From Candidatus Hydrogenedentota bacterium (GTDB lineage: Bacteria > Hydrogenedentota > Hydrogenedentia > Hydrogenedentales > SLHB01), in the NCBI GenBank assembly GCA_034408725.1, contig JAWXCN010000161.1, positions 1 through 52,177 on the forward strand: 52,177 nt of DNA. The letters run 5' to 3'. Below the pieces are notes generated by a model. That model did not search any database, was not told the origin of the DNA, and saw nothing but the letters and a program-made list of their open reading frames with translations. Below, piece by piece: positions 382 through 51,081 of the stretch. Position 1 is the stretch's first letter; each line of letters opens with the position of its first letter. The position numbers and the translations under genes were made by a program.

Positions 382-861
382 TTAGCTCACAGTCACGGTT
401 TCACCCGCGCCACCTTCCCTCGCCCCGTCTTTTTCGTGCTCGTGCTCGTCTTCGTAATCGTCACTCGTAGTATCGACATACGCAACACCATCTTCACGAA
501 CGGCACTCTCGCGCTGGTCCGTCATTTTTGACAGCATCGACACAATTCTAAAAAGTAGTTCCTTGCCCGTGACAGTCTGGCTCGCATCAACAGCGGCGAC
601 TGTAACCAGCACATCCAGGGTCGCGGCACTTTCCATGGCCGAGCCCCGCGCTATTTCAAAATACCGTTTGCGTTCCGCCAAATGCCGTTTGCCATTCCCT
701 TCTGCGATATTGAGCGGGATAGATTGGCTTGAGCGCGTAAGTTGGTCTCGCGCGTTCCGGTGGCGTGAAGGAATCAGCGTGTTTAAGTCACTCACAAACC
801 TGACAAATTCGAGGCTGGCGCGGTAGACGTGAAGTTTCTCGTGGTCGAACTCCCGATTCAC
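382..861 (-). CDS. Four helix bundle protein (23S rRNA IVS/S23-like, bAvd-like family)
   Basis: FDHEKLHVY...[20 protein letters not shown]...[15 protein letters not shown] motifs; likely GTG start at 861. Confidence 0.92.
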
Positions 862-922
862 CGATTTAACTCGGGAACGGGAGTAACGAGTGCGATTACG
901 AATGACGAGCACGAGCACAAAA
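431..922. repeat. Imperfect ~38-bp inverted repeat arms (431-468 and 886-922) built of GAGCAC/GATTAC hexamers, enclosing the four-helix-bundle gene
   Basis: TTTTCGTGCTCGTGCTCGTCTTCGTAATCGTCACTCGT vs reverse complement of right arm TTTTGTGCTCGTGCTCGTCATTCGTAATCGCACTCGT. Confidence 0.9.
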
Positions 923-973
923 CGTCGCAGGCCTTTGCATGGCGTATACTCTCAATCCTCTTCATCCCGCGTG

Positions 974-1456
974 TCACTCCACCAATCTCACCGCAAACAT
1001 CGGCTGCCCATACTCCACCGGCTCCCCATTCTCCACAAGAACATTCACAATTTCGCATTTGAATTTCGACGCAACCTCGTTCATCAATTTCATCGCCTCG
1101 ACGATGCACACCGCCTGGTTCTCCTCGATGATATCCCCCGCCTTCACAAACGGAGGTTCGCCTGGTGACGGGGAGCCATAGAACACGCCGACCATGGGCG
1201 ATTCAATGGTGACGAGTGACTCGTCATGCTCGGCTTCCGTGGACACGGTGGAAATTACGCCGGGCGCGGGCACGGCCGCTGATGGCCCCGGCGATGGCGC
1301 GACCGCTGGAACGTGCGCGATCACATGCTGCGGGTGCTCGGCCACCGGCAAACTCTTCGTAAGCCGGATGCGGCGACCTTCTTCTTCAAATTCAATTTCC
1401 GAGAGACCGGATTCCTGAAATATTCCAATCAGCTCGCGAAGTTTATCCAAATCCAA
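974..1456 (-). CDS. accB: Biotin carboxyl carrier protein
   Basis: ESPMVGVFY and EAMKLMNE biotinylation motif, Pro/Ala linker. Confidence 0.97.
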   Translation of the reverse strand: MDLDKLRELIGIFQESGLSEIEFEEEGRRIRLTKSLPVAEHPQHVIAHVPAVAPSPGPSAAVPAPGVISTVSTEAEHDESLVTIESPMVGVFYGSPSPGEPPFVKAGDIIEENQAVCIVEAMKLMNEVASKFKCEIVNVLVENGEPVEYGQPMFAVRLVE

Positions 1457-1495
1457 TGCGCAGACCTCCCCGTGGGACTACTGCTTGACGGTGTG

Positions 1496-2053
1496 TTACG
1501 CGCGTTCGATGTAAGCCGAAGTGCGTGTATCCACTTTGATCGTTTCACCCTCGCCTACGAACAGCGGCACCTGTACGACCGCGCCCGTCTCGAGTGTGGC
1601 CGGTTTCGTTCCGCCGGTCGAGCGATCCCCCTGAATGCCGGGGTCGCACTTCGTAATCTTTAACGTCACCGTGATGGGCACTTTAACCATGATCACCTTC
1701 CCGTCGTGAAAGACGAGATTGACGATCATGTTTTCCTTGAACCATTTCGCGTTATCGCCGACGGTCGTCTCACCCACCGGAATCTGCTCGTAACTTTCCG
1801 GATGCATGAAGTGATACAAATCCCCGTCGTGATACAGATATTGCCAGCCAGCTTCCTCGAGCCGCACGTTCTCCATTTTTTCGCCCGATCGAAAGGTCTT
1901 CTCGATGACGCGGCCCGAAAGCACGTTCTTGAACTTCGTGCGCACAAACGCCCCGCCCTTGCCCGGCTTCACATGTTGAAACTCGATTATTTCCATGAGC
2001 TGGCCTTCCTGCAAAACCACCAGCCCATTCCGGAATTCCGCCGTCGAAATCAT
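1496..2053 (-). CDS. efp: Elongation factor P
   Basis: HVKPGKGGAFVRTK, KPATLETG, VPLFV..GE.IKVDTR. Confidence 0.98.
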   Translation of the reverse strand: MISTAEFRNGLVVLQEGQLMEIIEFQHVKPGKGGAFVRTKFKNVLSGRVIEKTFRSGEKMENVRLEEAGWQYLYHDGDLYHFMHPESYEQIPVGETTVGDNAKWFKENMIVNLVFHDGKVIMVKVPITVTLKITKCDPGIQGDRSTGGTKPATLETGAVVQVPLFVGEGETIKVDTRTSAYIERA

Positions 2054-3949: not shown

Positions 3950-4144
3950 TTCACCACGAAGACACGAAGAAATTCCTCGAATTGTGCCTTCTTGACGAAG
4001 TTTTCCGGCTAGGCTTTTCGTGCAGCTATTCTTTCTCAAATCCCCGTGCTCCCCGTGTCCCCGTGGTCATATTTTTTTTGCGCCATTTGCGTTTTTTCGC
4101 GGCCATTCTTTCTTACTTCGTGTTCTTCGTGCCTTCGTGGTGAA
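3950..4144. repeat. Inverted pair of CACGAAG-type 9-nt-period arms (3950-3975 / 4116-4144) with two other repeat arms stacked inside
   Basis: TTCACCACGAAGACACGAAGAA vs CTTCGTGTTCTTCGTGCCTTCGTGGTGAA; internal CCCCGTGCTCCCCGTGTCCCCGTGGT (4042-4067) and TTTGCGCCATTTGCGTTTTTTCGCGGCC (4077-4104). Confidence 0.8.
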
Positions 4145-4177
4145 AAAAAAGGGCCGCACCCTTCGGCGCGGCCCTTT
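4143..4177 (-). terminator. Rho-independent terminator downstream of blaR1-like gene
   Basis: Minus strand GGGCCGCGCC-GAAG-GGTGCGGCCC followed by T8. Confidence 0.88.
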
Positions 4178-4187
4178 AATAATTTCC

Positions 4188-6542
4188 TTAACGCGATTCT
4201 ATTACGGCAATTTCCTTGACTGAATCTCCCGCGGCATTCTCAATTCCATCCAATCCCAACAGGGCGCCGATAAACGCCTCCGTCATCGGATATTTCCCCG
4301 GATACTCTACAAATTCCGCGTGCCCATCCATATACAACACGTTGGCCCCCATTTTTCCGTCCGGCCAGCTGCGCGGTCTGCCCACAATCACGGGAATTTT
4401 ACTTTGCTGTGTCGCGGCTTGCGTGGGGTCATTGATGTCTGTAATTAGAAACCGCTCAATTCCCTCTCGCAACAATCGCATTTTCTGCGCGGCCTTACCT
4501 TCGAAACCCACTTCCTGCGGCAACGGAGTTCCCTTGACAACTGTCTCGCGATAGGTCTCCACAAATTTCAGTCCTGCTGCCTCCTCTTGCGTCGCATACG
4601 GAATGTACCAATAGCTCCTATCGTCGAAATACGCGTCCGCATCATCGGTTCCGGGACGTTCCACCCATGGACTCAACAGCACTTTTGGATCGCTCAGATA
4701 TTCCGGATACACCGATTCCTGGTCCATGATGATTCGCCCCGCGCGTTCATCGATTAGGGGATACGAGCCTTCCTCGTCATTCGCATACATCTTCAACACG
4801 AGACCCAACTGCTTGAGGTTGTTCTGATCCGAAGCGATCTGTTCCCGCATAGTGCGAGCGACATCTTCGTTCGCCGATGGAACCGGTTTTCCTATGCGCG
4901 AACCAAGTGTGGGTCGCTCAACTTGCTGCGCTCCATCCTTTACTGCCGGAACGGGCTTTACTACTGGAACAGGTTTTACTACCGGAACGGCTTCGACAGT
5001 CGCGCCCGTGGAACGTGTCCCGATCTGCGCTCTAAATCCTTCATCCCTCAGCAGTTCGGGTGATGAAATCCAGATGTAGCCATCGTCGAAGGCGTAGTCC
5101 AATCCCATTGGACGCAGCAAGGCCGACAACGCCGCGCGCACGGTCACATTATTGAGTTTAATGCTGCTGACCGTACCCACGCTTCGATGGGTGGGATCTG
5201 TGACTTCGTTTTTAGACCGCACCACGCGGGCGTCAATCACGAAATTAAGTTCGGTAGAATCACTCAGGTATTGAAGCACGTCCTGAAGGTGCGTTTCCTC
5301 GAACTCCAGACTAATCGCGCTGTCAAGTTGTACAAGGGCCCATTCCGGAGTTGGTTCAGTATTTTTGGCCACGATGAATGATGCATCCGATAAAGTACTG
5401 CTTGATTCTGCTCGCGGCGCTGTTGACGGCTGGGTAATTAAATCGGTCCCCACGCTCGCATTTGTCAATCCGATACAAACCAGTATGGCGATCACCGCGA
5501 GCGCGAGCGCCGACCAGCCGTACGAGCCTTTCTTGAATAAAGCAATCATCGCGATTCTCCTTTTGAGGGCAGACTTGCCTTCGACAATTCCCACAACTCC
5601 GGGGACGGAATGAAACGCGCGTGAGCGATCCAGCAGCGCGAGGATGGTGTTACCGTAGGACTTCGCTTCATCCGTATCTGAAGCACTGAGCGCAAGCGCG
5701 TCACACGCCAGCTCGCGGTCAGACCGCATGCGATGAAACGCAAACCATAACAGCGGATTGAACCAATGCACGAGCAGCAGTAACGACGTGAGCCAATTCG
5801 CAAGGATGTCACGGCGCTTGTGGTGCGCTACTTCGTGCATGAAGACATGCCGCAATGTTGTCTGGTCCGCATCGCGCGCCAACGCGTTCGGAATCAATAT
5901 TCGAGGCCGTATCCAGCCAAACAGCGCAGGGCCGCGATCCCAATCCACCGCCACAACAGTCATCGGCGTCGCAACACCCAGCCGTTCCTTGCAATCTTCT
6001 AATACGTTCAACACCGCCGGATCGATCACCGGACGACACCGCCGCACACGCCGCAGCACCGCAATGTTGTTAACAGCCATAACGAAGCCCAGCGCGATCA
6101 CTCCCGCGATCCAAGCGACAGTCAGGCGGCCCCAAACCGTAAGCGTGCTACTCACGGAACGGTCCACATCCGCGGAACCAGCCACCAGCGCTGACGCTCC
6201 AGCAGAGATTTCGTTTGCGTCCGGCGGTGGCGGGAACTCCAGTTTATCAATTCCTGGCGCGGCCCCGACATACGACCAGCTTCCTTGAGGCAAATCTAGC
6301 TGAGTGGAGAAATTTTCTGGAAGCCGTAACAAATTAAAGACACTAATACTGCTCGAAGGGGCTACCGGCATCACCAGCCGAGCCACCACCACGAACCACA
6401 GCGCATAGCTCCAGCGCGGTGTCAGATTGCGCTTCAACGCAGCCTGCACAACCATTACTAAAACCACCAGCACCGCCGCTTGAAAAGACGTCGGTATCAC
6501 CCAACCCAACAAACCGATTGCGCTCGTCATCCAGTTGTCCAT
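4188..6542 (-). CDS. BlaR1/MecR1-like M56 metallopeptidase sensor with STN-like and DUF1559/H-X9-DG-like extracytoplasmic domains
   Basis: GPALFGWIRPRILIP, HEVAH..RRD, HWFNPLLW, DRELACD, LKRRI; then ISLEFEETHLQDVL...L.NVTVRAAL; then NNLKQLGLVLKMYAN...GANVLYMDGH. Confidence 0.9.
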   Translation of the reverse strand: MDNWMTSAIGLLGWVIPTSFQAAVLVVLVMVVQAALKRNLTPRWSYALWFVVVARLVMPVAPSSSISVFNLLRLPENFSTQLDLPQGSWSYVGAAPGIDKLEFPPPPDANEISAGASALVAGSADVDRSVSSTLTVWGRLTVAWIAGVIALGFVMAVNNIAVLRRVRRCRPVIDPAVLNVLEDCKERLGVATPMTVVAVDWDRGPALFGWIRPRILIPNALARDADQTTLRHVFMHEVAHHKRRDILANWLTSLLLLVHWFNPLLWFAFHRMRSDRELACDALALSASDTDEAKSYGNTILALLDRSRAFHSVPGVVGIVEGKSALKRRIAMIALFKKGSYGWSALALAVIAILVCIGLTNASVGTDLITQPSTAPRAESSSTLSDASFIVAKNTEPTPEWALVQLDSAISLEFEETHLQDVLQYLSDSTELNFVIDARVVRSKNEVTDPTHRSVGTVSSIKLNNVTVRAALSALLRPMGLDYAFDDGYIWISSPELLRDEGFRAQIGTRSTGATVEAVPVVKPVPVVKPVPAVKDGAQQVERPTLGSRIGKPVPSANEDVARTMREQIASDQNNLKQLGLVLKMYANDEEGSYPLIDERAGRIIMDQESVYPEYLSDPKVLLSPWVERPGTDDADAYFDDRSYWYIPYATQEEAAGLKFVETYRETVVKGTPLPQEVGFEGKAAQKMRLLREGIERFLITDINDPTQAATQQSKIPVIVGRPRSWPDGKMGANVLYMDGHAEFVEYPGKYPMTEAFIGALLGLDGIENAAGDSVKEIAVIESR

Positions 6543-6544
6543 GA

Positions 6545-6919
6545 CTAAGACCCCTTCTCGTCCAGAACACGCCGGAGTTCTTCAATCTCCTCCGCGCTCA
6601 GCTTTTCCAATTCAAGGAAATGCGACAGCATTGGTGTCAGTGCGCCCCGATACACCCGCTCCAGAAACGACCGGCTCTCCGCCCGCGCGCAATCCTCTTC
6701 CTGCACCAGAGGGTAGTAGTGGTAGATACGCCCGTTCGCCTCGTACCCCAGCGCCTTCTTTTTCACCAACCGGTTCAACAATGTCTTGATGGTTTGTGGG
6801 CTCCACGCCGTCTCCGCTTCCAAAGCCCCGACCACGTCATTCGCAGTCCGCGGTGATTTGTCCCATATCACCCGCATCACCACCCATTCCGAAACGGAGA
6901 TACCCGGTAAGTTCCGCAT
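6545..6919 (-). CDS. BlaI/MecI/CopY family repressor
   Basis: ISVSEWVVMRVIW, WSPQTIKTLLNRLVKK, LSAEEIEELRRVL; exact start uncertain (6919-6931). Confidence 0.95.
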   Translation of the reverse strand: MRNLPGISVSEWVVMRVIWDKSPRTANDVVGALEAETAWSPQTIKTLLNRLVKKKALGYEANGRIYHYYPLVQEEDCARAESRSFLERVYRGALTPMLSHFLELEKLSAEEIEELRRVLDEKGS

Positions 6920-6939
6920 TGAATGCATCATCCCTTTCT

Positions 6940-6987
6940 GATTACATCTGTAATCGCTATAATTACACATGTAATCAAAAAAGTCAA
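6940..6987 (-). promoter_or_regulatory. Two BlaI/CopY-type operator palindromes overlapping promoter
   Basis: GATTACA-TC-TGTAATC (6940-6955) and ATTACA-CA-TGTAAT (6962-6975) match TACAnnTGTA; TTGACT -35-like at 6987-6982. Confidence 0.88.
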
Positions 6988-6999: not shown

Positions 7000-7128
7000 T
7001 TCACCACGAAGGCACGAAGAAATTCAAGAAACACCTCCCGTAGATGCGAGACACCCCGGAAAACTCCCGAATAAATCTGTTTCTTTTTTTTCAATTTCTT
7101 GTCTTCGTGCCCTTCGTGCCTTCGTGGT
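7000..7128. repeat. Second inverted pair of CACGAAG-type arms (7000-7030 / 7096-7128)
   Basis: TTCACCACGAAGGCACGAAGAAATTC vs CTTCGTGCCCTTCGTGCCTTCGTGGT. Confidence 0.82.
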
Positions 7129-7164
7129 AAAAAAAAACGGGGCCGCGCCTTTCGGCACGGCCCC
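7129..7164 (-). terminator. Rho-independent terminator
   Basis: Minus strand GGGGCCGTGCC-GAAA-GGCGCGGCCCC-G followed by T9. Confidence 0.9.
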
Positions 7165-7189
7165 TGGAAAAACAGTCCTGAACGCGCTC

Positions 7190-7414: not shown

Positions 7415-7968
7415 GATTTTAGATTTTAGATTTTGGATTTTAGATTCGTGGTCGCCGAAGCCCTCGCGAGTTGTTTCGGCTTATTCAAACCCCGCAGCGT
7501 TCGTATAGAAGCCACAATCATGGCCAAAATCTCATCTGTCTCGCGCATCAATGATTCGAGCTTCTTTTTTGGCAGAGTTTCCGAAGCCACAAACAGTTCC
7601 AGCCAGTACAGGGTCTAATCCGCTTCTTCTTCTACGATACCGAGTTTGCTTATGACATCCGCCGCACTTCTTCCCCTGCAAGCCGCACGGTAATTAGCGC
7701 CGACAGAAGTCGCGGAGCGAAGGAGCTGTCTTCCGATAGTCTGCGCAGTCATGTTTTTCGGTAACGCGTTCACAAGCCGAATGACTCTTAATCCCAGCCT
7801 CTTCGTCCGTGCCTTAAACTCCGCTTGGTTCATATTTCGAATCCAATAGGTTTAAAGGAGAGAGCAAATCCCCGATACAAAAACGACTGTTCGCACTCCA
7901 CGTTCAAAGTCTCCGCGCGTCCTTTCCCCAATCTAAAATCCAAAATCTAAAATCTAAAATCTAAAATC
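7415..7968. repeat. Perfect 32-bp inverted repeat of GATTTTA heptamers (7415-7446 / 7930-7968) enclosing second four-helix-bundle gene
   Basis: GATTTTAGATTTTAGATTTTGGATTTTAGATT vs AATCTAAAATCCAAAATCTAAAATCTAAAATC(TAAAATC); variant unit is mirrored. Confidence 0.95.
7426..7833 (-). pseudogene. Four helix bundle protein with in-frame TAG
   Basis: QLLRSATSVGANYRAACRGRS...IVEEEAD*TLYWLEL...EILAMIVASIRTL; TAG at 7617-7615 where Glu (GAG) is expected; frame continues to TAA at 7428-7426. Confidence 0.9.
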
Positions 7969-13285: not shown

Positions 13286-13320
13286 GTCTTCATCGTGCAC
13301 GTGCTCGTCCTCGTAATCGA
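13286..13320. repeat. Solo GAGCAC/GATTAC-family repeat arm
   Basis: CGTGCACGTGCTCGTCCTCGTAATCG, same family as 431-468. Confidence 0.7.
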
Positions 13321-15169: not shown

Positions 15170-15307
15170 ACTCGCTTTCTTCCAGTGAGCGTCATCGTAA
15201 TCGGATCGATCGTGCCCACCAACGAAATCAAGAAACGCGACGAGGACTTATCGCTACACAGTTCGGGAACCCCTAAGCGCGCCATCAACCAAAAACCTGA
15301 ATGATTC

Positions 15308-15818: not shown

Positions 15819-15852
15819 GTCTCATACGTCCCATTTGTCCCATACTTCCCAT
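15819..15852. repeat. GTCCCAT-type 9-nt-period repeat arm
   Basis: GTCTCATAC-GTCCCATTT-GTCCCATAC-TTCCCAT. Confidence 0.65.
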
Positions 15853-17736: not shown

Positions 17737-17771
17737 ATTCTTTTCTCTCTTGCGCGGCTTTGCGGCGAAGA

Positions 17772-18148: not shown

Positions 18149-18252
18149 GATTCCTCGCCGATGGCTAATTCCCATGCTTTCCGAATTCCACCCAAATTGT
18201 ACCTCACAGCGGCATCATCGCGGAATTCCACGGAGCGCGGATTTCCAACCCG

Positions 18253-32950: not shown

Positions 32951-32952
32951 CC

Positions 32953-34332: not shown

Positions 34333-34407
34333 GACGTCCCCTTGGTCCCTGAAACCCCGAAACCGATCTGCAGTCGCGCGGGCTACAAATCAACTGCCCG
34401 CTGCAAT

Positions 34408-35310: not shown

Positions 35311-35361
35311 AGTCCGCCAGTCCTTTCGTTGTCACCGCGTTGTTCCTTTCCCGGCTCGCGT

Positions 35362-37233: not shown

Positions 37234-37239
37234 GGCGCA

Positions 37240-38991: not shown

Positions 38992-38996
38992 AATCG

Positions 38997-39902: not shown

Positions 39903-40548
39903 TGGTCTTTAGGTCGGGCGCACCGTTCCCTGGAATGAAGCATGGATGCCCAGCGAACTCGTCTGCGATAGCCCCAGGCGCGCACTTCGCTCAGTATAAT
40001 TGTCCTTGCGGAGTCTATCAATGCCAATTCTGTTTTTGAGATATACGTGCTTGCCTAAAAGATGTCCGACGCCGATTATTGCGCGATCCATTTGATCGGG
40101 ATGTTAGTAACTTTTGGATTGACGAGAATTTTCGTCATTGGAAGGTTCCCGTGGCTAAAACGACGGTGAATTATCGCTCCTGGCGTTGCCAGTGAAGTTG
40201 TTGGTCTGTCCCTTCGCGACCGCAACGCGGTTCACCGTCGTTGTGATCGCGGCCATTGTATTGCGCAGGGTCTCAGCGCTTGTCGCTCCATGTTAGTTCG
40301 AAAATTCGCCGCTGCATGGCAACAGCGAGACGGTATGAATGGGATTTTGTCGCAGCTTGGGACTGTTCAAATCCAGTTCCTACTTCAGCATTCGCCGATT
40401 TGTCACACGTACACGCATTGGCGCGCCGCTGGCCTTGAGGGCGCTGATCCGTTTGTTCCGAATATCGACTGCGGGGGGAGCATGGGCTATAGTGCTTTCA
40501 TCGGGGGTCAGCCGGCGTGTCCGCGGCGCCGTTTCAGAGGAAGTATTC

Positions 40549-42765
40549 ATGGGGTTCATCGCACTGAAGTCCACGAAGTGGGCTTTAGACATCGCGACCA
40601 AGATGATCAAGGCCAATATCCGCGTCCACAACATCGAGCATGTGAAGGACGACATGGCGATAGTCTACGTCGTCAATCATTTCACCCGCGTCGAAACCGT
40701 GTTGCTGCCGTATATTCTGCACAAGTACACGGGCAAGGAAATCTGGTCGTTGGCGGCGGCGGAATTGTTCGAGGGGAAGATCGGCGAGTATTTGTTGTCG
40801 ATGGGGAACGTCTCGACGAAGAACCCCGATCGCGACACGATCATCGTCAATTCGCTGTTAACCGGCGAACATCCCTGGATCATTTTTCCCGAAGGCGGCA
40901 TGATTAAAGACAAGAAGGTCGTCGATCAAAAAGGCGATTTCAAAGTGTACAGCAAGGGCACGCGCCGCCCTCCGCATACGGGCGCGGCGGTGCTGGCGTT
41001 GCGCGCGGAATATTTCCGGCAGCGTCTCGCGTGTTTCAAGGATCGGCCCGGCAAACAGGAAGTGATCCAGCCGATCCTCTCGAAACTCGGCCTGACGGAC
41101 ATTGATCAGGCGTTCAAGAAACGTACGTACATCGTGCCCGTGAACATCACGTATTTTCCGATCCGCGCGCGGGACAATATGATGCTGCGCATCGCCCGCG
41201 CGTTTGCAAAAGACCTCAGCAAACGTGCCATCGAGGAACTGTCCGTCGAAGGCACGGTGCTCTCGGCGGACACTGACATTGACGTCACTTTCGGCGATCC
41301 CATCGAAGTCGGGCATTTCCTCCAGGAGACCGACTGCAAACTGCTTGTCGAGTCCATCGAAACGGACCTGAACACGCTTGAAGAAGATCCCGAATCCGGG
41401 TTCAACGAGGCCGCGCGCCGTCTGATGGTCCGGTTCATGGCGGACATCTACCGCAACACAACGGTGAACTACGACCACATTTTCGGCACGCTGATTCGCA
41501 ACCAGCGCGCGCGAAAATTCACCGACCGCGCGTACCGGAACCGCATCTTCCTCGCGGTTCACCAGATTAAGCAACTGGGCCAACACCGGCTGCACCACGT
41601 GCTCGACCGGTCATACCGCGATATTCTGTATGAAGACGCAAGCCCGATCCTCACTGACTTCCTCGACCTGTGTCTCAGCGAAGGCATTCTGCTGAAGCAG
41701 GGCAACGAGTACGTGCGTAACACACAGGCGCGCACGGTGGAAGCCGATTTCCATAACGTGCGCAAGGAAGAAGTGACGTCGGTCATCGCCAATGAAGTCG
41801 AACCGTTGACTATCCTCACGGGTATCATCCAGAACGTTGCGCGGTTGCCGCGCCCGATGTTGTCGAGCAAGATTCGCGCGATCTTCCTGAAGGAAGACCT
41901 CGACCTGTTTGAACATGATTATGCGAACTACGCCACGTCCGGCGAGAACAAACCCCCGGACGTCGGCCGGCCATTCCTTCTGACACCGCAAAAGTTCAAG
42001 GCAGGGATCGTGCTTGTTCACGGATACATGGCCGCGCCGCTGGAAGTAAAGGCGATGGCGGATTACTTCGCCCAGCGCGGCTTCGCCGTCTACGCAGTGC
42101 GCCTCAAAGGCCACGGCACGTCCGCGGAAGACCTCGCCCGCACGCCCTGGGAAGAATGGTACGAGTCCGTCAACCGCGGCTACGCGATCGTCAAAAGCCT
42201 GACGGACAATATCGTGCTCGGTGGGTTCTCGACCGGGGGCGTGCTCGCGCTCCTCGCCGCTGGCCGGAAGAAGGACAAAGTCAAAGCGGTGTTTTCGATC
42301 AATGCGCCGCTGCAACTCCGCAATTACATGGCGCGGTTCGCCTCCCAAATCGTGTCCATGAACAGCCTGATCGCCCGGCTCAAGCGCGGCACCGGCTGGG
42401 TCTATATCGAAAACAATCCGGAGAACAAGCACATCAATTACACGCGAAATCCGATCACCGGGGTGCGTGAGCTCGGCAAGGCGATGTCGGCGATGGAAGG
42501 CGCGCTGAAAGACATTTCCGTGCCGACGCTCATTGTCCAGGGATACCGGGACCCGATAGTTGACCCGACCAGCGGCCAAAATATTTTCAGCCAGATCGGC
42601 ACCCATCAGAAAGAGCTTATCGTGATCGATGCCGCGCGCCACGGCATCATCAACGGCGAAGGTTCGGTCGACGTGTATGACCGCATAGATCGGTTCCTCA
42701 TGCGCGCCCGCGAGCACGAAAACGCCGCCATCGCGACGGAGAGCGAAGCCGCCGAAGCGGGATAG
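40549..42765 (+). CDS. Glycerolipid acyltransferase (PlsC/PlsB-like) fused to alpha/beta hydrolase
   Basis: NHFTRVE and FPEGG acyltransferase blocks; LVHGY, GHGT, GFSTGG, DPIV, RHGI hydrolase motifs; ATG after GAGGA. Confidence 0.88.
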   Translation: MGFIALKSTKWALDIATKMIKANIRVHNIEHVKDDMAIVYVVNHFTRVETVLLPYILHKYTGKEIWSLAAAELFEGKIGEYLLSMGNVSTKNPDRDTIIVNSLLTGEHPWIIFPEGGMIKDKKVVDQKGDFKVYSKGTRRPPHTGAAVLALRAEYFRQRLACFKDRPGKQEVIQPILSKLGLTDIDQAFKKRTYIVPVNITYFPIRARDNMMLRIARAFAKDLSKRAIEELSVEGTVLSADTDIDVTFGDPIEVGHFLQETDCKLLVESIETDLNTLEEDPESGFNEAARRLMVRFMADIYRNTTVNYDHIFGTLIRNQRARKFTDRAYRNRIFLAVHQIKQLGQHRLHHVLDRSYRDILYEDASPILTDFLDLCLSEGILLKQGNEYVRNTQARTVEADFHNVRKEEVTSVIANEVEPLTILTGIIQNVARLPRPMLSSKIRAIFLKEDLDLFEHDYANYATSGENKPPDVGRPFLLTPQKFKAGIVLVHGYMAAPLEVKAMADYFAQRGFAVYAVRLKGHGTSAEDLARTPWEEWYESVNRGYAIVKSLTDNIVLGGFSTGGVLALLAAGRKKDKVKAVFSINAPLQLRNYMARFASQIVSMNSLIARLKRGTGWVYIENNPENKHINYTRNPITGVRELGKAMSAMEGALKDISVPTLIVQGYRDPIVDPTSGQNIFSQIGTHQKELIVIDAARHGIINGEGSVDVYDRIDRFLMRAREHENAAIATESEAAEAG

Positions 42766-42820
42766 CTCCTCCACTCCCCCAGTCAGGGCGAACCGGAATA
42801 CAAGGCTACCGATAAGCCTA

Positions 42821-42849
42821 TTGACACAAAGTTCATCAATCCGTACAAT
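42821..42849 (+). promoter_or_regulatory. Sigma70 promoter
   Basis: TTGACA-17-TACAAT. Confidence 0.8.
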
Positions 42850-42891
42850 ATTAGAAACCATTCACAAATAAACCAGTTTTTGGGGGGCATA

Positions 42892-44466
42892 ATGGGGACT
42901 ATGGCTCGGGGCGGAGTATTAGGCATGCTTTGCGTCGTTCTTACGCATGCCGAATTGCAGAGCGTCGAGGTGGGTGGAAAGCTTGAGATTTACGGCCACT
43001 GGTACACGGGGTTGGCCGAATCAGCGGGGACATCCGAACGAATCCCAAGTTTCTTTCTGCCACTTCGTCCTATTGGGCCCTACAACACCGCTTCATGGCT
43101 GCAAGCGGGTGACGGCGGGAACAATGAAGGACATGTGGAGCAGCGGACCCGATTGCACGTCGCCGCGGAATTCACTAACGACGTCAGCGCATTTTTCGAG
43201 ATCAACCAGGTTGATGTGTGGGGCGACGACTTCCGGTCGGACTACCGGACTGGGATCGACTCACGCGCAACCTCCGCTGACGATTTGGAAGTGAACCAGG
43301 CCTACGTCAGTGTCGACAACGTGCTGGGCTTGCCTGCGCGACTTCGAATCGGAAGGCAAGCCATGGAATTTGGTTCCGGTTGGCTGGTCGCCAGCGATAT
43401 TAGTCCCGCTCCGTTTCTCGATACGACGTATGACGCCATTCGCCTCACGGTTGCAATCGAGTCGTTGCGCGTAGACGCATGGATCAGCGAGCTCGCGGAA
43501 AGCGGCGCGGCGGAGGAAAACGGAGACGTCGATTTTTACGGCGTTTACGCTACGTGGCTTCCGGGCTCGGGCGCCAATCATGAATCCGCGAATCTCGAAT
43601 TCGACGTGTATTACCTGTTCCTGCGGGACGCGCGCAGTCTGAACGATACAAATTTCGCCGCTCCGATTGAGCGGCTGGAAAACTTCGTGGGTCTTGATGA
43701 CTACGGCGCAACGGAGTTGCACGTCGCTGGCGCGCGAGGCGCCGGGGTTTGGAACCAATTCGATTGGGAGATCGAGGCCGCGTATCAGTGGGGCGTCGCG
43801 GACGCAGTCGGTTTCCTGTTCAAACCCGCGGGACAGTTGTACGGCGATGACGATGCGCGGCGGAACACCTGGGGCGGTCACGCAGAAGCGGGTTGGACCA
43901 CGCGATTGCCCTGGAGAATCCGTTTTTTCGCGGGAGGCGCGTACTACGGAGGAGAAGATAACCGCGGCATTTCATTTCGCGATTGGGTAAACCCATTTGA
44001 TCGTTCCGAAGCCAGTATCTCGTTCAATCGCCTTTTTACCTCCTGGCATGAGGACGCCTTCATCGAAGGCACCAGCATGTCAAACTTCTGGAAAGCGTAT
44101 CTCGGCGCGAACGCATACCCGAGCGACAACGTGGAGATGGGGTTGAACGCGACCTACTACGAAATTCTGGAGCCCTTTGACAGTCCCGTGTCCGTATCGC
44201 TTGGTGGATGGAAAGTGCCGGTAGCGCCGGCGCTTTCGTTCTGGACCACGGAAGGATCGACCGAACTGGGGTGGCAGGTTTCGTTGTGGGCAGTCTACGC
44301 TTATTCCGAGGACCTGTCGTTTGAGGTCGGATGGTCCCATTGGTTCACGGGCGACGCGATAGGCGAGGGCGCTGCATTTATCGACGAGAACGGTCTGAGA
44401 AATGTTGGTGGCCGCGACGACGAAGATCAGGAATACTTCTACTTCCTGACGACCATCGAATTTTAG
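42892..44466 (+). CDS. Alginate export family outer-membrane beta-barrel
   Basis: EQRTRL, QAYV, LRIGRQ..EFG.G.LV, YDAIR, EAAYQWG, terminal Phe. Confidence 0.82.
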   Translation: MGTMARGGVLGMLCVVLTHAELQSVEVGGKLEIYGHWYTGLAESAGTSERIPSFFLPLRPIGPYNTASWLQAGDGGNNEGHVEQRTRLHVAAEFTNDVSAFFEINQVDVWGDDFRSDYRTGIDSRATSADDLEVNQAYVSVDNVLGLPARLRIGRQAMEFGSGWLVASDISPAPFLDTTYDAIRLTVAIESLRVDAWISELAESGAAEENGDVDFYGVYATWLPGSGANHESANLEFDVYYLFLRDARSLNDTNFAAPIERLENFVGLDDYGATELHVAGARGAGVWNQFDWEIEAAYQWGVADAVGFLFKPAGQLYGDDDARRNTWGGHAEAGWTTRLPWRIRFFAGGAYYGGEDNRGISFRDWVNPFDRSEASISFNRLFTSWHEDAFIEGTSMSNFWKAYLGANAYPSDNVEMGLNATYYEILEPFDSPVSVSLGGWKVPVAPALSFWTTEGSTELGWQVSLWAVYAYSEDLSFEVGWSHWFTGDAIGEGAAFIDENGLRNVGGRDDEDQEYFYFLTTIEF

Positions 44467-44500
44467 ACGGGCGCGAAGCGCGGGTTACCGATGGTTTTGT

Positions 44501-46342
44501 CTACCGCGACAGGTTCGCCGCGGCTTGAATCGGTTTCACTTCCGCGGGTTGCGGTTCATCCCCCGACGGAAAACTCATTAGTGGTGGTACTGGCGGCGCG
44601 TTGCGAATCCATTTCATCAACTGCCCCTGAAACTTGTCGCGCACGGGAAACCCGGCGGTGAACATGTCGCTCAAATAACTTTCGGTGGTCTCGCGCGCGC
44701 ACAACGCGCGATAGTAGGCCTGTTTCTTGAACGCATCGGAAAACGCCACGACTCCATCTTTTACGGGCGTGTCCATGTGTTTCGCGGTTGCCGCTTCCTT
44801 GCTGCCGAATGATGCGCCCCAACGGATTTCGGGCGCGTGGTTTGGATCGAACGACATGTCGTATAGCCGTCGTTCGATATCAAGCAAAGATAGCGTAACC
44901 TTTTCACCCGCGGAATTCGTGTACTCCATGTAACGCGTCCGGAACACGCGGTCTTTCTCGGCGACGAGCGCGCGCGCCAGGTTCGCGCGATCGCCGAGAT
45001 AGTACGGTTCGAGCCCGGCGAGATCGACAAAGCCTGGCCGGCGGTTATGCCAGCGGATGACGTTGTCCATCCAGTCCGCGAGATAGTAATAGCGTCCGCG
45101 GATATCGACGTCCGACGACGCGGAACTGAACTGTCCCCAGCGGCCGCCCGCGGTGAATATATTCTCTAAGCGATCATTCTCGGGATAGAATATCGCGCCG
45201 TTCGCGTTGACGTCGCGCCAGCCCTCCTGCACGAGTGCTTCACGCAGTTTGTATAAGCCGATGAGTTCGTCGGCGTACTGCGTGAGGAATTCCGTTGGCG
45301 AAACATGATTGACGGAGCGCATGCGTTCGAGGATTAACTCGTGAAAACTCTCAAGCGGCACGTTGTTCTCGACAATTTTTTGCGTCTTTGCGATTTCCTC
45401 GATGCGATCATACTGTTCGAGGGACCAGCCAAACTCACGCATTTCCTGATCGGTGCGGCGGCGCACGGCTACGACTTCTCCTGTCTCATCGACTTCGGCG
45501 ATAGGATAGCGGAAGATGCGCAGTCCCTGGAAGCATCCGGCGTATTCGTTGCCGGCGCGGCCAGTATGTTTCGGCGGGATGCCCATGACGGCGTTCAGCC
45601 CGTTGAAGCTGTAGATGTCGCGCGAGGCGGCCGTGGTGGAATCGAGAAAGCGAAGTTCGCCGTTCTTGTCTATGTCGGCAAGCACGAGGACGTGGCCATC
45701 GAGGTAGTGCATCGCGCCGGGGATGAGGAATTGTTTGTTGATCGCGATCGGTACGGTATCCGATTGCTGGCTGTTTTCGCCATAAGGTTCGACACGATAG
45801 TTGCCGGTGCAAAATCCGGTAACCGCGTTGCGGAAGAAGTATTCAAGGGACTCCGCGGTAAAGCTGTTGAGCTCGCCTGCGGGAATGTTGTTGTGCGCGG
45901 TACGGAGGTCGCCTCCGCCCGAGCGCACATAGCTGATCATCCACGGCAGTCCGCGCCGGTACGAGTAGTACGATGAAAGCGAAACAGTGAGCTTGCCGCA
46001 GTCGAGAATACTGTGCATGACACCCATGAGATTATCGGGCAATTGCGGGTTGGACTGTTCCCCCGCGAATTCGGGGTCGAGCAGGAGATTCATTTCGGGA
46101 TCGGTGAGCACACGCACGAGTTTCGCGCGACGCTGCTCGAGCGTGCCCTGGGTTTTAAGTTTGTAGATATTGTTGATCCACACCGCGTAGTGGTGGCTTT
46201 CGGCGACGTTCCATTGCCGGCGAACGGGCCATGCCCCTTCGTCACTGTGAATCGATGGCGGGTTCGGGTCTGCGGCGAACAGCGGCAACCCGCAAGCCGA
46301 AAGCAGGATACAGACCGACCACCTGCGTACTGAGCAAAGCAT
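44501..46342 (-). CDS. Secreted protein of unknown family with putative Cys-His-Asp triad (paralog 1)
   Basis: Signal peptide; DCGK...DGHVLVLA...FLDS; colinear with 46410-48266. Confidence 0.85.
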   Translation of the reverse strand: MLCSVRRWSVCILLSACGLPLFAADPNPPSIHSDEGAWPVRRQWNVAESHHYAVWINNIYKLKTQGTLEQRRAKLVRVLTDPEMNLLLDPEFAGEQSNPQLPDNLMGVMHSILDCGKLTVSLSSYYSYRRGLPWMISYVRSGGGDLRTAHNNIPAGELNSFTAESLEYFFRNAVTGFCTGNYRVEPYGENSQQSDTVPIAINKQFLIPGAMHYLDGHVLVLADIDKNGELRFLDSTTAASRDIYSFNGLNAVMGIPPKHTGRAGNEYAGCFQGLRIFRYPIAEVDETGEVVAVRRRTDQEMREFGWSLEQYDRIEEIAKTQKIVENNVPLESFHELILERMRSVNHVSPTEFLTQYADELIGLYKLREALVQEGWRDVNANGAIFYPENDRLENIFTAGGRWGQFSSASSDVDIRGRYYYLADWMDNVIRWHNRRPGFVDLAGLEPYYLGDRANLARALVAEKDRVFRTRYMEYTNSAGEKVTLSLLDIERRLYDMSFDPNHAPEIRWGASFGSKEAATAKHMDTPVKDGVVAFSDAFKKQAYYRALCARETTESYLSDMFTAGFPVRDKFQGQLMKWIRNAPPVPPLMSFPSGDEPQPAEVKPIQAAANLSR

Positions 46343-46409
46343 AGTGTCCCCCGAAACCATCATCCGACCCCAAAATCACCCAACGAAATCAAGCGAGCCC
46401 CCACTTTCG

Positions 46410-48266
46410 TCATTGCTGCTGCCCGGTCGCGACCGGTTCCGCGGGTTTGGATCCCGCGGTCTGTGATGCCTGCGCGAGGCGTTCCGGGTAACGCGCATAG
46501 AGCCATTTGTCGAGTTGCTGGTCGAACTTGACGCGCACGGGGTAGCCCGCGGTGAACATCGTGCGCAGGTAGCTGCGTTCAGTTTCCCGCTGGCACACAG
46601 TGCGGTAGTACGCCTGCTTGGCATAGGCGACTTCAAACGGCACAGCGCCGCCCTTGGGCACAGGAGTGGGGTTGATCTTCGCGGTGGCATATTCCGGCGT
46701 GCCGGGTTTTGCGCCCCAGCGAATTTCCGGCGCATGATTCGGGTCGAACGACATGTCGTAGATGCGTTCCTCGATATCCGCGAGCGACAGCTTTACCTTT
46801 TGCCCGGCGGTATTTGCATATTCCACGAAGTGTTCTTTGAATATTTTTTGCTTTTCAGCAACGATGGCTTCGGCAAAATCCTCTTTATTCTTGATGCTGT
46901 AGGATTCGAATCCCTTCAAGTCAATCAAATGCGGGGCGGATTCGTACCAGCGTACGGCGTTATCCATCCAGTCGGCGAGATAGAAATACTTGTTGCGGCG
47001 GTCCACGTCGGACGACGGCGAGCTCCAGTCTTCCCAACGGCCGTGGGCCTGAAAAATATTCGAGTCTTCCACCTGTTCTGGGTACGTGATCAATCCGCCG
47101 GTTTTGACGTTCGTCCATGCGTCCTGCACGAAGATATCGCGCTGCTGATACATATCGGCGAGTTCAACGACGTATTCGTGCATGAACTCCATCGGCACAA
47201 TCTTGTCCACGGTCTTCATGCGATACCGGATGAACTCGTGCATGCTTTGGAGGCGCAACCCGTCTTCGACGATCACGTGGTCAGTGACGATCTGCGTGAT
47301 CTTCTCATACTGCTCGATTGACCCGCCAAACTCTTCCATCTCCCGGTCGGTGCGCCTGCGCACTTTCGTCACGCGCCCGCTGCTGTCCGTCTCGGCAATC
47401 GGGTACCGGAAAATGCGCATACCCTGAAAACAACCCTTGAGGGGATTGGGCCCTTCCGACGTCATCGGTTCGATCCCCGCGACGGTATTCATTCCATTGA
47501 ACGTGAAAATATCGCGGGTGCGGTTAATACTGGCATTGATGAAATGTAGCTCACCGTATTTATCCACCTGCGCAAGCAACAAGCAGTGTCCGTCCGTGTA
47601 GTTCATGGCTCCCGGCAACAGATACTGCCGGTTAATTGCGACGGGCACAGTATCGGATTGATCCGAACGCGTGCTATTCGGTTCCACGCGATAATTACCG
47701 GAGCTGATTCCCGTCACCATGTTCCGGAAGAATGCGTCGGCGGAACCCGACGTGAAACTGTTCAGGTTTCCACCCGGAATGTTCGCGGGCGCGGTGCGCA
47801 CGTCGCCTTTGGTCGCCGATACATACGAAATCATCCAGGGCAGCGCGCGGCGGTAGGCGTAGTACGCCGGCAAGGTCATGCTGAACTTCGCGCAGTCGGT
47901 GATGTTGTGCAGGAACGAAATAGTGCCTTTGCCCAGTTGCGGGTTCGAACCTTGTCCGGCGAACGATGGGTCGAGCAACAGATTGATCTTGGGGTCTGTC
48001 AGGATACGGTCCAACTTCGCGATGCGCTGATCGACGTCCCCCTTGGTCTTCGCTACGTAAATGTGCTCCATCCATTTCGCGAAATGTTGCGTCTCTTCGG
48101 GGTTCCATTGCCGGCGGATGGGCCACGCGCCTTGAGACGACCGGACCGTGGGCGGGTTCGGGTCCTGCGCCAGGACGATGGGCGCAATCAGGCCGGCCAA
48201 TACGGTAGCGAACAGTCTGCGCGGTTTGCTGCAAACCGGCCAGAAATAGGAAAAGTATGTGTGCAT
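46410..48266 (-). CDS. Secreted protein of unknown family with putative Cys-His-Asn triad (paralog 2)
   Basis: Signal peptide; DCAK...DGHCLLLA...FINAS; ATG at 48266 after GAGG. Confidence 0.85.
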   Translation of the reverse strand: MHTYFSYFWPVCSKPRRLFATVLAGLIAPIVLAQDPNPPTVRSSQGAWPIRRQWNPEETQHFAKWMEHIYVAKTKGDVDQRIAKLDRILTDPKINLLLDPSFAGQGSNPQLGKGTISFLHNITDCAKFSMTLPAYYAYRRALPWMISYVSATKGDVRTAPANIPGGNLNSFTSGSADAFFRNMVTGISSGNYRVEPNSTRSDQSDTVPVAINRQYLLPGAMNYTDGHCLLLAQVDKYGELHFINASINRTRDIFTFNGMNTVAGIEPMTSEGPNPLKGCFQGMRIFRYPIAETDSSGRVTKVRRRTDREMEEFGGSIEQYEKITQIVTDHVIVEDGLRLQSMHEFIRYRMKTVDKIVPMEFMHEYVVELADMYQQRDIFVQDAWTNVKTGGLITYPEQVEDSNIFQAHGRWEDWSSPSSDVDRRNKYFYLADWMDNAVRWYESAPHLIDLKGFESYSIKNKEDFAEAIVAEKQKIFKEHFVEYANTAGQKVKLSLADIEERIYDMSFDPNHAPEIRWGAKPGTPEYATAKINPTPVPKGGAVPFEVAYAKQAYYRTVCQRETERSYLRTMFTAGYPVRVKFDQQLDKWLYARYPERLAQASQTAGSKPAEPVATGQQQ

Positions 48267-48813: not shown

Positions 48814-48890
<77 letters not shown>

Positions 48891-49195: not shown

Positions 49196-49528
49196 TCACA
49201 GCAACATTAAATGCGCCGCAACCTGATCTTGAACAAATTCGCGGATTGCCTCCGCGTGTGTTCTCAACAAGTCTTCAATCGGCTTGACAGGACAATTCCC
49301 GACACGGATCCAAATGAATTTCGGCGGAAAACCGTGCAACAAACTACGCTGCTGAAAATCGGAATCTTTCGAAACGCTTACAAACTCATTGTCCTTCGCG
49401 AACTGCCATATATCCGCATCGGAAGCGTCGCGCAACTCCACGTCGCGTACATGCACGCTATCGGGATAAATATTTGTGAGAAGACGAGGCAGGTGAGGCG
49501 AAAGGTTTTGGTCGAACAGCAGCTTCAC
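49196..49528 (-). CDS. DUF5615 PIN-like toxin (VapC45-like)
   Basis: MKLLFDQNLS, HV.D..L..ASD.DIW, SKDSDF. Confidence 0.92.
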   Translation of the reverse strand: MKLLFDQNLSPHLPRLLTNIYPDSVHVRDVELRDASDADIWQFAKDNEFVSVSKDSDFQQRSLLHGFPPKFIWIRVGNCPVKPIEDLLRTHAEAIREFVQDQVAAHLMLL

Positions 49529-49758
49529 GCAGGCAACGTAGCCAATTTACGCTCACGGTCCGCCGCAATCGCCAAACACGCGCGAATATCCTCATCCGTT
49601 AGATCAGGAAACTCCGCCAGCAGTTCCTCGTGCGACATGCCCCCCGCAAGGTATTCAAGCACATCCGTCACCGTCATACGCGTCCCGCGTATACACGGCT
49701 TTCCGCTACGCTTGCCGGGCTCGATAGTAATGATTGCGCTGTAGTCCATGTGTTCCAT
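49525..49758 (-). CDS. DUF433 antitoxin (VapB45-like)
   Basis: PGKRSGKPCIRGTRMTV, EFPDLTDEDIRACL. Confidence 0.94.
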   Translation of the reverse strand: MEHMDYSAIITIEPGKRSGKPCIRGTRMTVTDVLEYLAGGMSHEELLAEFPDLTDEDIRACLAIAADRERKLATLPA

Positions 49759-49789
49759 GACTCAATAATACCACGGATGCTCATTGATA

Positions 49790-51025
49790 CTATCTTGCTG
49801 CCGCCCCTGCGGCAGCGCCGCTTTCGTCTCCGTTGCTCCGCTTCAATACGTACGCCTCCGCGCGGAGGAGTTCGCTATTCTTCCCCGCGAGCACTTCGGC
49901 GGGATCAGGCTCGACCACTTCGTCCGGTTCGATGCCGTTAAACTCGATCGGCTTGCCGTCGGCGCGCCAACGGCTGCGCGTGGGCAGTGAGACGGTGGCG
50001 ATGCCGGATGGGAATTTCCATTGCCGTTTTGAGCTCGAAGCGCCGGCGGTGGTTGAACCGAAAAGGCGGGCTTCTGCGAGCTCCGCGAAATCGCGCGCCA
50101 GGGTTTCGCCCGCGGAAATGCAACCCGCATCGATGATGACGGCGACGGGCTTGGGCACGCTCTTCACCATGTCGAGCAGCGCCTGATCGTATCCGCCGCC
50201 GCCGTTCCCGCGGAGATCGACGACCCAGCCTTTGACGTCCTTGTGTTTGTCGAGTGCTTCTTTCATGCCCTCCGTCACACTTTGATCGACACGGCGCAGG
50301 TACATGTAGCCCACGCCGCTTTCGAGCGTGCCGTAGAGAAATGATCGGCCGAATCGGGTGAGCGGTTCGGGCATGTTGTAAACGTGGGGCCAGCCGCGGG
50401 CTTCGGCGTTGTTTGTGACTGTGATTTCCTTTTCTTCGCCGTCCACGAGGTAATGAATTATGTGGGATTCACCCTGCTTTCCGCGAAGGGGGATGCGGTA
50501 AGCGTATAGCCGAGCGCGTTGAAACGAGGATGCGAACATGGTTTCCCAGTTTTTTTGGACCTGTTTTTCGAGGTGGGTGTAGGCATCATCGCCGTCGATT
50601 CGCAGAATGATCGTGCCCACTTTCAGATCGGGCGAGAGATTTGGATCAACGGTCATGACGATTACGCGGTGATCGGTTGCGGGCATGAACGTTATCCGGG
50701 GGCAATATTCGGGTTCCGGTTGCGGCAGCGGCGTCTGGGTATCGGACAACGACATATGCGAATCACGGAGCACGCGAAATGCGTCGATGATTAGGCCGAG
50801 AAACGCTGCGTCGGTCGTACAGGCTTTGGCGTGTTCTTCCAGTTGGGGCTTGGCGGTATTCCAGTCCGCGCGAATGTTTTTCAGATCGAAGAAAGGATAA
50901 GTGTCGTCGATTTCCTTGGCGAACGCCTTCCAGTCCGCGACATAGGTTGTGGGATCGCTCTCTGCGAAACTGCACATACCAATCGCCACGACCAAAAGCG
51001 CATATCGCGAGAAACTGGGTGACAT
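49790..51025 (-). CDS. S41 family peptidase, exported
   Basis: LRDSH, VGYMYL, DLRGNGGG, SAGE, G.TTAG, GIEPD. Confidence 0.9.
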   Translation of the reverse strand: MSPSFSRYALLVVAIGMCSFAESDPTTYVADWKAFAKEIDDTYPFFDLKNIRADWNTAKPQLEEHAKACTTDAAFLGLIIDAFRVLRDSHMSLSDTQTPLPQPEPEYCPRITFMPATDHRVIVMTVDPNLSPDLKVGTIILRIDGDDAYTHLEKQVQKNWETMFASSFQRARLYAYRIPLRGKQGESHIIHYLVDGEEKEITVTNNAEARGWPHVYNMPEPLTRFGRSFLYGTLESGVGYMYLRRVDQSVTEGMKEALDKHKDVKGWVVDLRGNGGGGYDQALLDMVKSVPKPVAVIIDAGCISAGETLARDFAELAEARLFGSTTAGASSSKRQWKFPSGIATVSLPTRSRWRADGKPIEFNGIEPDEVVEPDPAEVLAGKNSELLRAEAYVLKRSNGDESGAAAGAAAR

Positions 51026-51046
51026 CTGGATTGCCCTCTTTTTTAA

Positions 51047-51081
51047 GGACTTATGGGACTTATACGAGTTATGGGACTTAT
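51047..51081. repeat. ATGGGAC-type 9-nt-period repeat arm
   Basis: GGACTTATGGGACTTATACGAGTTATGGGACTTAT; inverse-sense relative of 15819-15852. Confidence 0.65.

Follow-up and report, generated by a model that had tools for sequence, protein, structure and literature searches.

Short tandem repeats of a Hydrogenedentota genome as probable arms and debris of small palindromic cassettes

What are the short, strand-asymmetric tandem arrays that punctuate the intergenic spacers of a Candidatus Hydrogenedentota genome? They were noticed in a stretch of 52,177 bp, here called the window, which is the entire contig C161 (JAWXCN010000161.1) of an assembly of 5.17 Mb in 280 contigs that is 92% complete. 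The initial annotation of the window had distinguished six repeat families and read them as the footprints of a system that captures and loses accessory genes. We consider it fairly probable that the repeats are instead the arms and the debris of small palindromic cassettes that resemble the intervening sequences (IVS) of rRNA genes and are located outside rRNA, in ordinary intergenic spacers. The finding itself is real, widespread and barely described. The genome is designated G000, and the congeners with which it was compared are G001, G002, G003 and G004. Eight DNA runs and no RNA run are listed as holding this genome, seven from microbial mat and one from soil, and at least half of the sampled words were present in four of them.

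Arrays, inverted pairs and polarity

Arrays were detected with Tandem Repeats Finder (TRF) and by direct reading of the sequence, and a Markov-4 simulated genome served as the null. All six families of the initial annotation were recovered. The TCGTGC/GAGCAC family, together with TCGTAA/GATTAC, was found at 431, 886, 13286, 15190 (degenerate) and 25567; CACGAAG at 3950, 4116, 7000 and 7096–7126; GATTTTA at 7415 and 7930; CGCAGAT/CACAGAT at 17103, 17308, 17493 and 18484; ACCGAT at 17051, 17276, 17466, 18447 and 24697; and GTCCCAT at 15819 and 51047. The window contained 25 short arrays by TRF, with 2 to 5.6 copies of the unit per array. Based on our own gene calls all of them are intergenic, the array at 13286 straddling the end of a gap and being counted by eye, and outside 29309–48266 there are 14 gaps of at least 100 bp, 10 of which contain an array. 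Within 29309–48266, which had been reported as free of arrays, TRF indeed listed nothing, and it found no array anywhere between 26564 and 51047; this is weak evidence because just three gaps of at least 100 bp lie there. The units of 6–10 nt are contiguous and without unique spacers, and the arms are tandem arrays rather than single palindromic units, so that the earlier exclusion of CRISPR and of classical repetitive extragenic palindromic (REP) sequences was upheld.

An excess over chance was found across the genome. At TRF scores of at least 40, the real and the simulated genome contained 69 and 0 arrays of period 6, 113 and 0 of period 7–8, 71 and 5 of period 9, and 68 and 30 of period 10–11, respectively. 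At a score of 30 the real genome gave 2101 rows and the simulation 1044; because the simulation yields about half of the real count, low-scoring arrays are largely noise and are not evidence. The array density of the window, 0.48/kb, was ordinary in comparison with 0.41/kb genome-wide, and the repeats are no lexicon peculiar to the window. Recurrent unit families included ACGAGC (49 arrays), AAAATCC (28), AATCGT (22), ACCCGAT (16), the CACGAAG type (11) and others, and at least nine unrelated unit families occur in this one genome. For arrays with non-triplet periods and scores of at least 40, 83 of 145 fell in the 9% of the genome left unmasked by a crude open reading frame (ORF) mask that covers 91%.

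An inverted partner within 1.5 kb was found for 104 of 735 arrays and a direct partner for 29. The inverted arrangements form about 64 distinct pairs, whose interiors are mostly 18–300 nt long, with a second group at 400–700 nt. Each family has one fixed polarity: the unit of the left arm was constant in 59 of 59 classified pairs (CACG-type 20, TCGTGC 13, GATTTT 9, CGGGT 6, CAGAT 4, others 7), while five pairs were unclassified. The reverse arrangement of the arms was seen in none of these 59 pairs for CACNNNN, TCGTGC, GGATTTT, CGGGTAT, GTGGAC and AGGAAG. Fixed polarity therefore points to elements with defined outer ends, e.g. (T)CACCACGAAG...CTTCGTGGTG(A). Mismatches between the arms of 36 pairs comprised 19 sense-strand G.U and 26 A.C. 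The orientation of arrays relative to the neighboring gene, which had been expected to be ordered, was random (solos 71 vs 90, paired arrays 36 vs 44). A placement of arrays in sense orientation just past stop codons was tried as a rule; it fits the window and fails genome-wide on the same counts of solos (71 yes, 90 no).

Cassettes, their genes and their sites

Four left–right pairs are present in the window, two of which hold a PF05635 ORF, while the remaining pairs are empty; the gene-filled and near-empty pairs, stacks and solos distinguished in the initial annotation were all borne out. The first gene-filled pair lies between accC and accB. Its left arm (432–468) consists of three TCGTGC units followed by TCGTAA, and its right arm (886–922) of GATTAC followed by two GAGCAC units, which is the reverse complement of 432–468 (inverted-repeat score 27.5). 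Between them lies a gene for a four-helix-bundle protein (382–918, minus strand), assigned by profile searches to PF05635 (71 bits, cut-off 33.8) and TIGR02436 (64.1 bits, cut-off 24), with 2GSC (XCC0516) as the nearest solved structure (E 2e-10). The 178-aa ORF reads through the arm, which codes for its C-terminal tail; ORF callers run through arms in this way. As RNA, the two arms were predicted by folding to form a stem of about 36 bp that closes around the ORF (z -5.9). In the second gene-filled pair, 4.6 copies of GATTTTA (7415–7446) face 7930–7961 with a score of 32, and the right arm as a whole (7930–7968, 5.6 copies of AAAATCT) abuts the stop codon of an alcohol dehydrogenase (ADH) gene. 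The enclosed four-helix-bundle gene (7513–7809, minus strand) is a pseudogene with one in-frame TAG that still scores 58.9 bits against PF05635, its intact part being 7615–7833.

Both empty pairs belong to the CACGAAG family. The first has the left arm ACCACGAAG-N-CACGAAG at 3950–3972 (TRF and reading) and, at 4116–4144, a right arm of three CTTCGTG units plus GTG, adjoining a terminator-like hairpin after the BlaR1 gene; nested between them at 4041–4065 is a solo array of three CCCCGTG units, the right-arm type of the CACGGGG family (TRF and reading). The second lies upstream of blaI, with the same left arm, ACCACGAAG-N-CACGAAG, at 7000–7022 and three CTTCGTG units at 7103–7126, and 7000–7126 folds as a hairpin (-52.5 kcal/mol, z -6.1).

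Across the genome, profile searches found seven PF05635 matches and six matches to PF13366, a PD-(D/E)XK family of the GxxExxY type, at five loci. Arms scoring at least 25 flank all five PF13366 loci and three of the six assessable PF05635 loci, the seventh being at a contig end; two further PF05635 loci have weak inverted repeats with scores of 14 and 13. For comparison, only 2 of 300 random small ORFs reached a score of at least 16. PF05635 and PF13366 were the only gene families found within left–right pairs. The four-helix-bundle and GxxExxY genes predicted to be enclosed were thus found, and the toxin-antitoxin and defense genes predicted along with them were not within any inverted pair. 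No such gene is enclosed by a left–right pair in the window: HicAB lies between two right-type stacks in direct orientation, and MazEF and Avs2 lie outside any pair. To our knowledge, the four-helix-bundle "23S IVS" and the GxxExxY PD-(D/E)XK families are both very large and of no known function. One paper treats the PF05635 family as homologous to Avd, the accessory protein of diversity-generating retroelements (DGR; PMC10053308). The pseudogene at 7513–7809 and an otherwise empty pair on contig C67, in which 36 residues of a four-helix-bundle protein are still recognizable (E 6e-13), indicate that the genes of cassettes decay.

Comparison with relatives shows that the cassettes are discrete inserts, absent from the orthologous sites of other genera. 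Outside the genus, in 25 loci from the same family and order, the accB/accC spacer measures 12–117 bp. Where it holds the orthologous four-helix-bundle gene it measures 600 bp (G000), 603 bp (G001) or 559 bp (G003). The 171-bp spacer of G002 contains an empty hairpin from an unrelated family (ACCGAT), and that of G004 contains 332 bp of other DNA, in which no four-helix-bundle remnant was found. Hence one spacer carries different elements in congeners. The arms also differ between the orthologous cassettes, G001 having a CTCCTGCTC variant that is mirrored by GAGCAGGAG and G003 having CGTAAT units, and within each cassette the two arms have retained their complementarity. In both the orthologous cassettes and metagenomic relatives the order of unit variants is mirrored between the two arms, which suggests that one arm was copied from the other or that conversion occurs between arms.

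Sites around the GFO/IDH/MocA (GFO) gene vary in a similar manner. In G003 an empty TCGTGC pair is found upstream of the GFO gene in place of the GTCCCAT array, and in G004 a compact ACCGAT hairpin directly follows the GFO stop codon, where G000 has an ACCGAT stack. Upstream of the GFO orthologue of G002 (L175; protein 85% identical), the GTCCCAT-NN array was kept while the surrounding spacer diverged, which points to constraint on this solo array. The comparison with the congeners was confined to single sites because synteny with the window is lost after about 3.8 kb, next to the 3950–4144 element and just before the BlaI/BlaR1 pair. The 7415–7968 cassette is absent downstream of the ADH gene in all four congeners; because the neighboring genes differ there, none provides an exact empty site. 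The reading as a gene capture and loss system therefore survives in part: insert turnover at accB/accC and gene decay agree with it, and capture of toxin-antitoxin or defense genes was not seen.

The same arms were found well beyond the genus. Among 121 sampled genomes of the order, 39 have the pattern CACGRRG-N-CACGRRG-NN-CACGRRG and none has its reversed control. Among the matches listed, record names point to Acidobacteriota, Gemmatimonadales, Planctomycetota, Verrucomicrobia, Chloroflexi, several proteobacterial classes, Bacteroidia, a Dolichospermum and others, with Geothrix limicola Red804 and Methylobacter tundripaludum OWC-G53F among the cultured carriers, and of the cross-phylum loci with both arms among these matches, 20 of 22 had the left-then-right order. 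PF13366 genes were present in 37 of 39 arm-positive and 66 of 82 arm-negative genomes of the order, a weak co-occurrence, the genomes being kin and not independent. The numbers of genes and arms do not scale, as illustrated by G007 (33 PF13366 genes, one arm) and G115 (five genes, 46 arms).

Metagenomic relatives of the window's four-helix-bundle protein numbered 80 (47–64% identical), 72 of which had enough flanking sequence. Inverted arms were present in 58 of these 72, as against 14 with direct repeats of equal score, and nearly all arms had period six. Of those 58 relatives, 33 have an ORF that continues through the whole 3′ arm and six an ORF that stops inside it. The frame read through the 3′ arm is almost always alternating acidic, with 119 Asp and 55 Glu among 375 residues and tails such as DPDTDTDPDP and EYEYEY. 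In this subfamily the 3′ arm thus doubles as code for an acidic tail, a dual role that would explain the six-base period of the arms.

On the cassette reading, a complete element would run from a left arm of two to eight tandem units of 6–10 nt each, through a purine-rich leader and one small gene of PF05635 or PF13366, to a right arm with the reverse-complementary sequence of the left. Gene loss and rearrangement would have left behind most of the near-empty hairpins, solos and stacks. By analogy with the Coxiella IVS, the arms of a transcript may pair into a stem of 20–36 bp that RNase III could cleave, which would explain why an insert within the accBC operon is tolerated. Complementarity of the arms would be maintained at the DNA level, because neither a wobble bias nor an orientation bias with respect to transcription was seen, possibly by fold-back copying or by conversion between arms. 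As to movement, our guess is that a nuclease helps the elements to be copied into spacers and that copies lacking a gene are mobilized in trans.

A wider form of this explanation is tentative, and we would sooner doubt it than accept it. According to it, the arms are the ends of undescribed fold-back mobile cassettes that span phyla, one arm being DNA-copied from the other. The PD-(D/E)XK protein would act as a nuclease on spacers, opening targets of hairpin or cruciform shape; the Avd-like four-helix-bundle protein would be a partner that binds nucleic acid; and within a large four-helix-bundle subfamily the arm at the 3′ end would be at once a stem strand and the code for an acidic (Asp/Glu-X)n tail, fixing the period at six. 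If true, the fold-back reading would unite the excess of 6–9 nt repeats in bacteria, the IVS of rRNA and two small-protein families that are both very large.

Intergenic tandem repeats of 6–9 nt have repeatedly been reported without explanation, and here they are joined with both gene families as one kind of insert. Such an insert enters even an essential operon, and within one genus it turns over rapidly from species to species. Annotation is affected too: in metagenome-assembled genomes, many ORFs labelled "hypothetical" and many odd hairpins between genes would be these elements.

Weighing the alternatives

Several observations weigh against the cassette explanation. No mobility enzyme was identified: the genome has four PF01797 (Y1) matches and one match to a reverse transcriptase, and none of the five has an array within 1.5 kb, so that no recombinase, RAYT or reverse transcriptase is linked to the arrays. 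No target-site duplication was visible at accB/accC or beside the pairs inspected, in a comparison that held no empty site from a near-identical strain. The PF05635 gene on contig C183 is accompanied by direct, not inverted, arrays, and that on contig C255 by a weak, non-repetitive inverted repeat. The other 44 of the 45 empty pairs contained no four-helix-bundle remnant, and because a remnant is present in just one, most empties may never have contained a gene. No folding was found for the solo arrays, and one solo is conserved at the orthologous site of a second species, which is easier to reconcile with a binding site than with debris. The mismatch counts (19 vs 26) give no sign of RNA-level selection on the pairing of the arms. 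Moreover, the stacks at 17051–18511 follow the interleaved order A B ... A′ B′, which simple nested insertion cannot yield. Finally, over the part examined, the 23S rRNA gene of G000 (contig C151) showed neither a tandem array nor an inverted repeat. The 23S match at C151 381–2508 takes up 2128 nt against 2030 positions of the model; later parts of the gene match separately, with small insertions or breaks.

Of the alternatives, the one that survives best holds that a protein that binds DNA or RNA recognizes the arrays as tandem sites, either iteron-like or for translational control, and that the link to cassettes is secondary; we regard it as unlikely. It would account for the lack of structure in the solo arrays and for the GTCCCAT array that was kept in G002 amid diverged surroundings. 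The spacing of the CACGRRG triple, 1 nt and then 2 nt, is conserved across phyla, which suggests recognition by a protein, and a binding-site role has already been proposed for the TAACTGA heptamers of Beggiatoaceae (MacGregor 2015, PMC4679880). Binding sites would not be expected, however, to be oriented at random to the neighboring gene, to bound insert/empty-site polymorphisms, or to fall into at least nine unrelated unit families in a single genome, and no candidate binding protein was found.

Quite unlikely, in our judgment, is the view that the hairpins are non-autonomous transposons similar to MITEs (miniature transposable elements with inverted repeats) or to REPINs, moved in trans by e.g. 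a Y1/RAYT enzyme with the small genes as passengers. The intergenic hairpin pairs of 65–270 bp, their defined termini and fixed polarity, and the four PF01797 matches would suit such elements. Against this, no common core was found across the interiors of the 45 empty pairs, which share nothing but nested arrays. The many arm families contrast with one strong Y1 gene, and neither the Y1 genes nor the sole reverse transcriptase gene lies near an array. That no target-site duplication is visible at accB/accC counts here as well, and across phyla the arms travel with the PF05635 and PF13366 gene families.

Integron-like capture and loss of arbitrary accessory genes (toxin-antitoxin, defense, small nucleases) at arm-marked hot spots, which is closest to the original proposal, strikes us as very improbable. 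Arrays do lie at the edges of variable DNA, congener synteny stopping near 3.8 kb beside 3950–4144; the low-GC stretch of Avs2 and MazEF ends 15 bp short of the 24702 array, and HicAB lies between two stacks. Yet only two gene families occur within left–right pairs, and the arms on either side of the toxin-antitoxin and defense genes have the wrong orientation to each other. Nor is there an ordered cassette array, the layout of the window is not one-directional, and no linked integrase-like gene was noted, no search for an integrase having been made. Simple-sequence repeats arising from replication slippage without any element can hardly be credited: copy number does differ between arms and between species, and about half of the arrays at a TRF score of 30 are expected by chance, but the fixed polarity and the cross-phylum results, with identical motif and spacing and zero reversed-control matches, already contradict slippage, as does the mirrored order of unit variants in both arms.

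Known systems and remaining features of the window

In architecture the proposed cassettes recall the foldback (FB) transposons of Drosophila, which have long inverted termini of short tandem repeats and an optional coding middle, and in which the two arms of one element are more like each other than like the arms of other copies. FB transposons are eukaryotic, much larger and have an unrelated coding part, so the likeness is architectural only. The short tandemly repeated repetitive (STRR) heptamers of cyanobacteria likewise form short intergenic tandem arrays. As with the present elements, REPIN/RAYT systems and MITEs involve small inverted repeats that form hairpins between genes and occur many times in each genome; here, unlike there, the arms are tandem arrays, no core is conserved and no RAYT gene is flanked.

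The closest relatives appear to be the IVS of 23S rRNA genes in Coxiella burnetii and Leptospira, in which, as in the window, a PF05635 ORF is enclosed by a long stem that the terminal inverted repeats form. According to PMC4990558, the Coxiella IVS has a 28-bp terminal stem with three tandem GACAGAT heptamers in its 5′ arm, varying between two and three copies among strains; RNase III cuts within the stem, the S23p ORF is decaying, and an origin as a mobile element has been suspected. The CACAGAT/CGCAGAT units of the window are close to those heptamers. Unlike 23S IVS, which sit in helix 25 or 45 of a 23S rRNA gene, the window elements lie between protein-coding genes and in an operon, not in rRNA, they have many arm families and a second cargo, PF13366, and most copies are gene-less.

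Two further kinds of array have been described. Intergenic GGGAATC heptamer arrays of Xanthomonas include 70–75 cases of two nearby convergent arrays; array length varies by species, the single or paired type is kept, and the arrays were described as G-quadruplex-forming (Rehm et al, 2015, PMC4692102). Intergenic tandem units of about 7 nt, often in convergent pairs, are also met here with a different unit sequence, and the passages of that paper that were consulted state no link to enclosed genes. The TAACTGA heptamers of Beggiatoaceae, Cyanobacteria and Bacteroidetes form direct arrays just upstream of start codons, with one inverted case (MacGregor 2015, PMC4679880). They resemble the window arrays in being short intergenic arrays of two to six units with a patchy cross-phylum spread that suggests horizontal transfer. 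They differ in that inverted pairing is the rule for many families of the G000 genome and that orientation relative to genes is random. The earlier remark that no formal description was known therefore needs qualification: intergenic heptamer arrays (PMC4679880), convergent pairs (PMC4692102) and heptamers in a true 23S IVS stem (PMC4990558) are already in print. A link of repeat-built inverted arms to cassettes of PF05635 or PF13366 outside rRNA was not found in the open-access literature, supplements excluded.

The remaining arrays of the window are stacks and solos. A left-type stack of three ACCGAT units followed by three CGCAGAT units begins at the stop codon of the GFO gene (17051–17130), and a second copy of it lies at 17276–17335 within a tandem duplication of about 225 bp. 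A right-type stack of ATCGGT followed by three ATCTGCG units (17466–17520) is interleaved, not nested, with these left stacks, and a second stack of the same make-up is located at 18447–18511. The duplication comprises 17040–17264 and 17265–17490, each copy consisting of an ACCGAT array, a CGCAGAT array and a common core of about 50 nt (GAACCGTACTTA...GTTGCAC...GCTGG). A higher-order tandem of arm stacks was also seen on contig C35 of G000 (46710–47198), where five copies about 117 bp apart alternate a CACAGATTG array with a CACGGAG/CACGGGG array. Just within several right arms lies a related stretch (4066–4115, 17434–17470 and 18405–18440) that reads, on the minus strand, as a purine-rich leader, then ATGGCCGC, then a Lys/Arg-rich ORF of 16–26 codons.

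Further solo arrays lie elsewhere in the window. A left-type TCGTGC/TCGTAA array at 13286–13320 and a degenerate TCGTAA-type array at 15190–15215 were identified by direct reading. A GTCCCAT-NN array of period 9 lies upstream of the GFO gene (15819–15852) and has no fold of its own, and an ATGGGAC-NN array (period 9) at 51047–51081, with the S41 peptidase gene on one side and the UbiA gene on the other, does not fold either. A left-type ACCGAT array is found about 15 bp past the mazF stop codon (24702–24729), and a right-type array of GATTAC and 3.7 copies of GAGCAC at 25567–25594.

Other loci border on these arrays. The minus strand of 4188–6970 encodes a repressor of the BlaI type together with an M56 sensor protease of the BlaR1 type that has an STN (secretin/TonB N-terminal) domain. 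Two near-alike G+C-rich terminator-like hairpins lie at 4145–4178 and 7127–7165; on the minus strand a T run comes after each, with a CACGAAG arm directly behind the T run, and such a hairpin may travel with the arm. The hicA gene (17772–17960; PF07927, E 1e-9) and, upstream of it, a HicB-like ORF recognized by eye only (17957–18175) together span 17772–18175 on the minus strand, and near them is a 71-aa antitoxin-like ORF without a family match (17521–17736, minus strand). An Rfam scan of the window returned nothing but two tRNAs at gathering thresholds. A mazEF-type pair at 24111–24682 (plus strand) consists of a ribbon-helix-helix ORF overlapping a PemK/MazF toxin gene. An anti-phage NTPase gene of the Avs2 type (19251–23818, plus strand; NF041813, 1119 bits) is split into overlapping ORFs at 19251–20450 and 20405–23818, through either a frameshift or an assembly error; it lies in a low-GC stretch, 47–48% vs about 56%, and the first ORF has a further match, to Avs4's N-terminal part.

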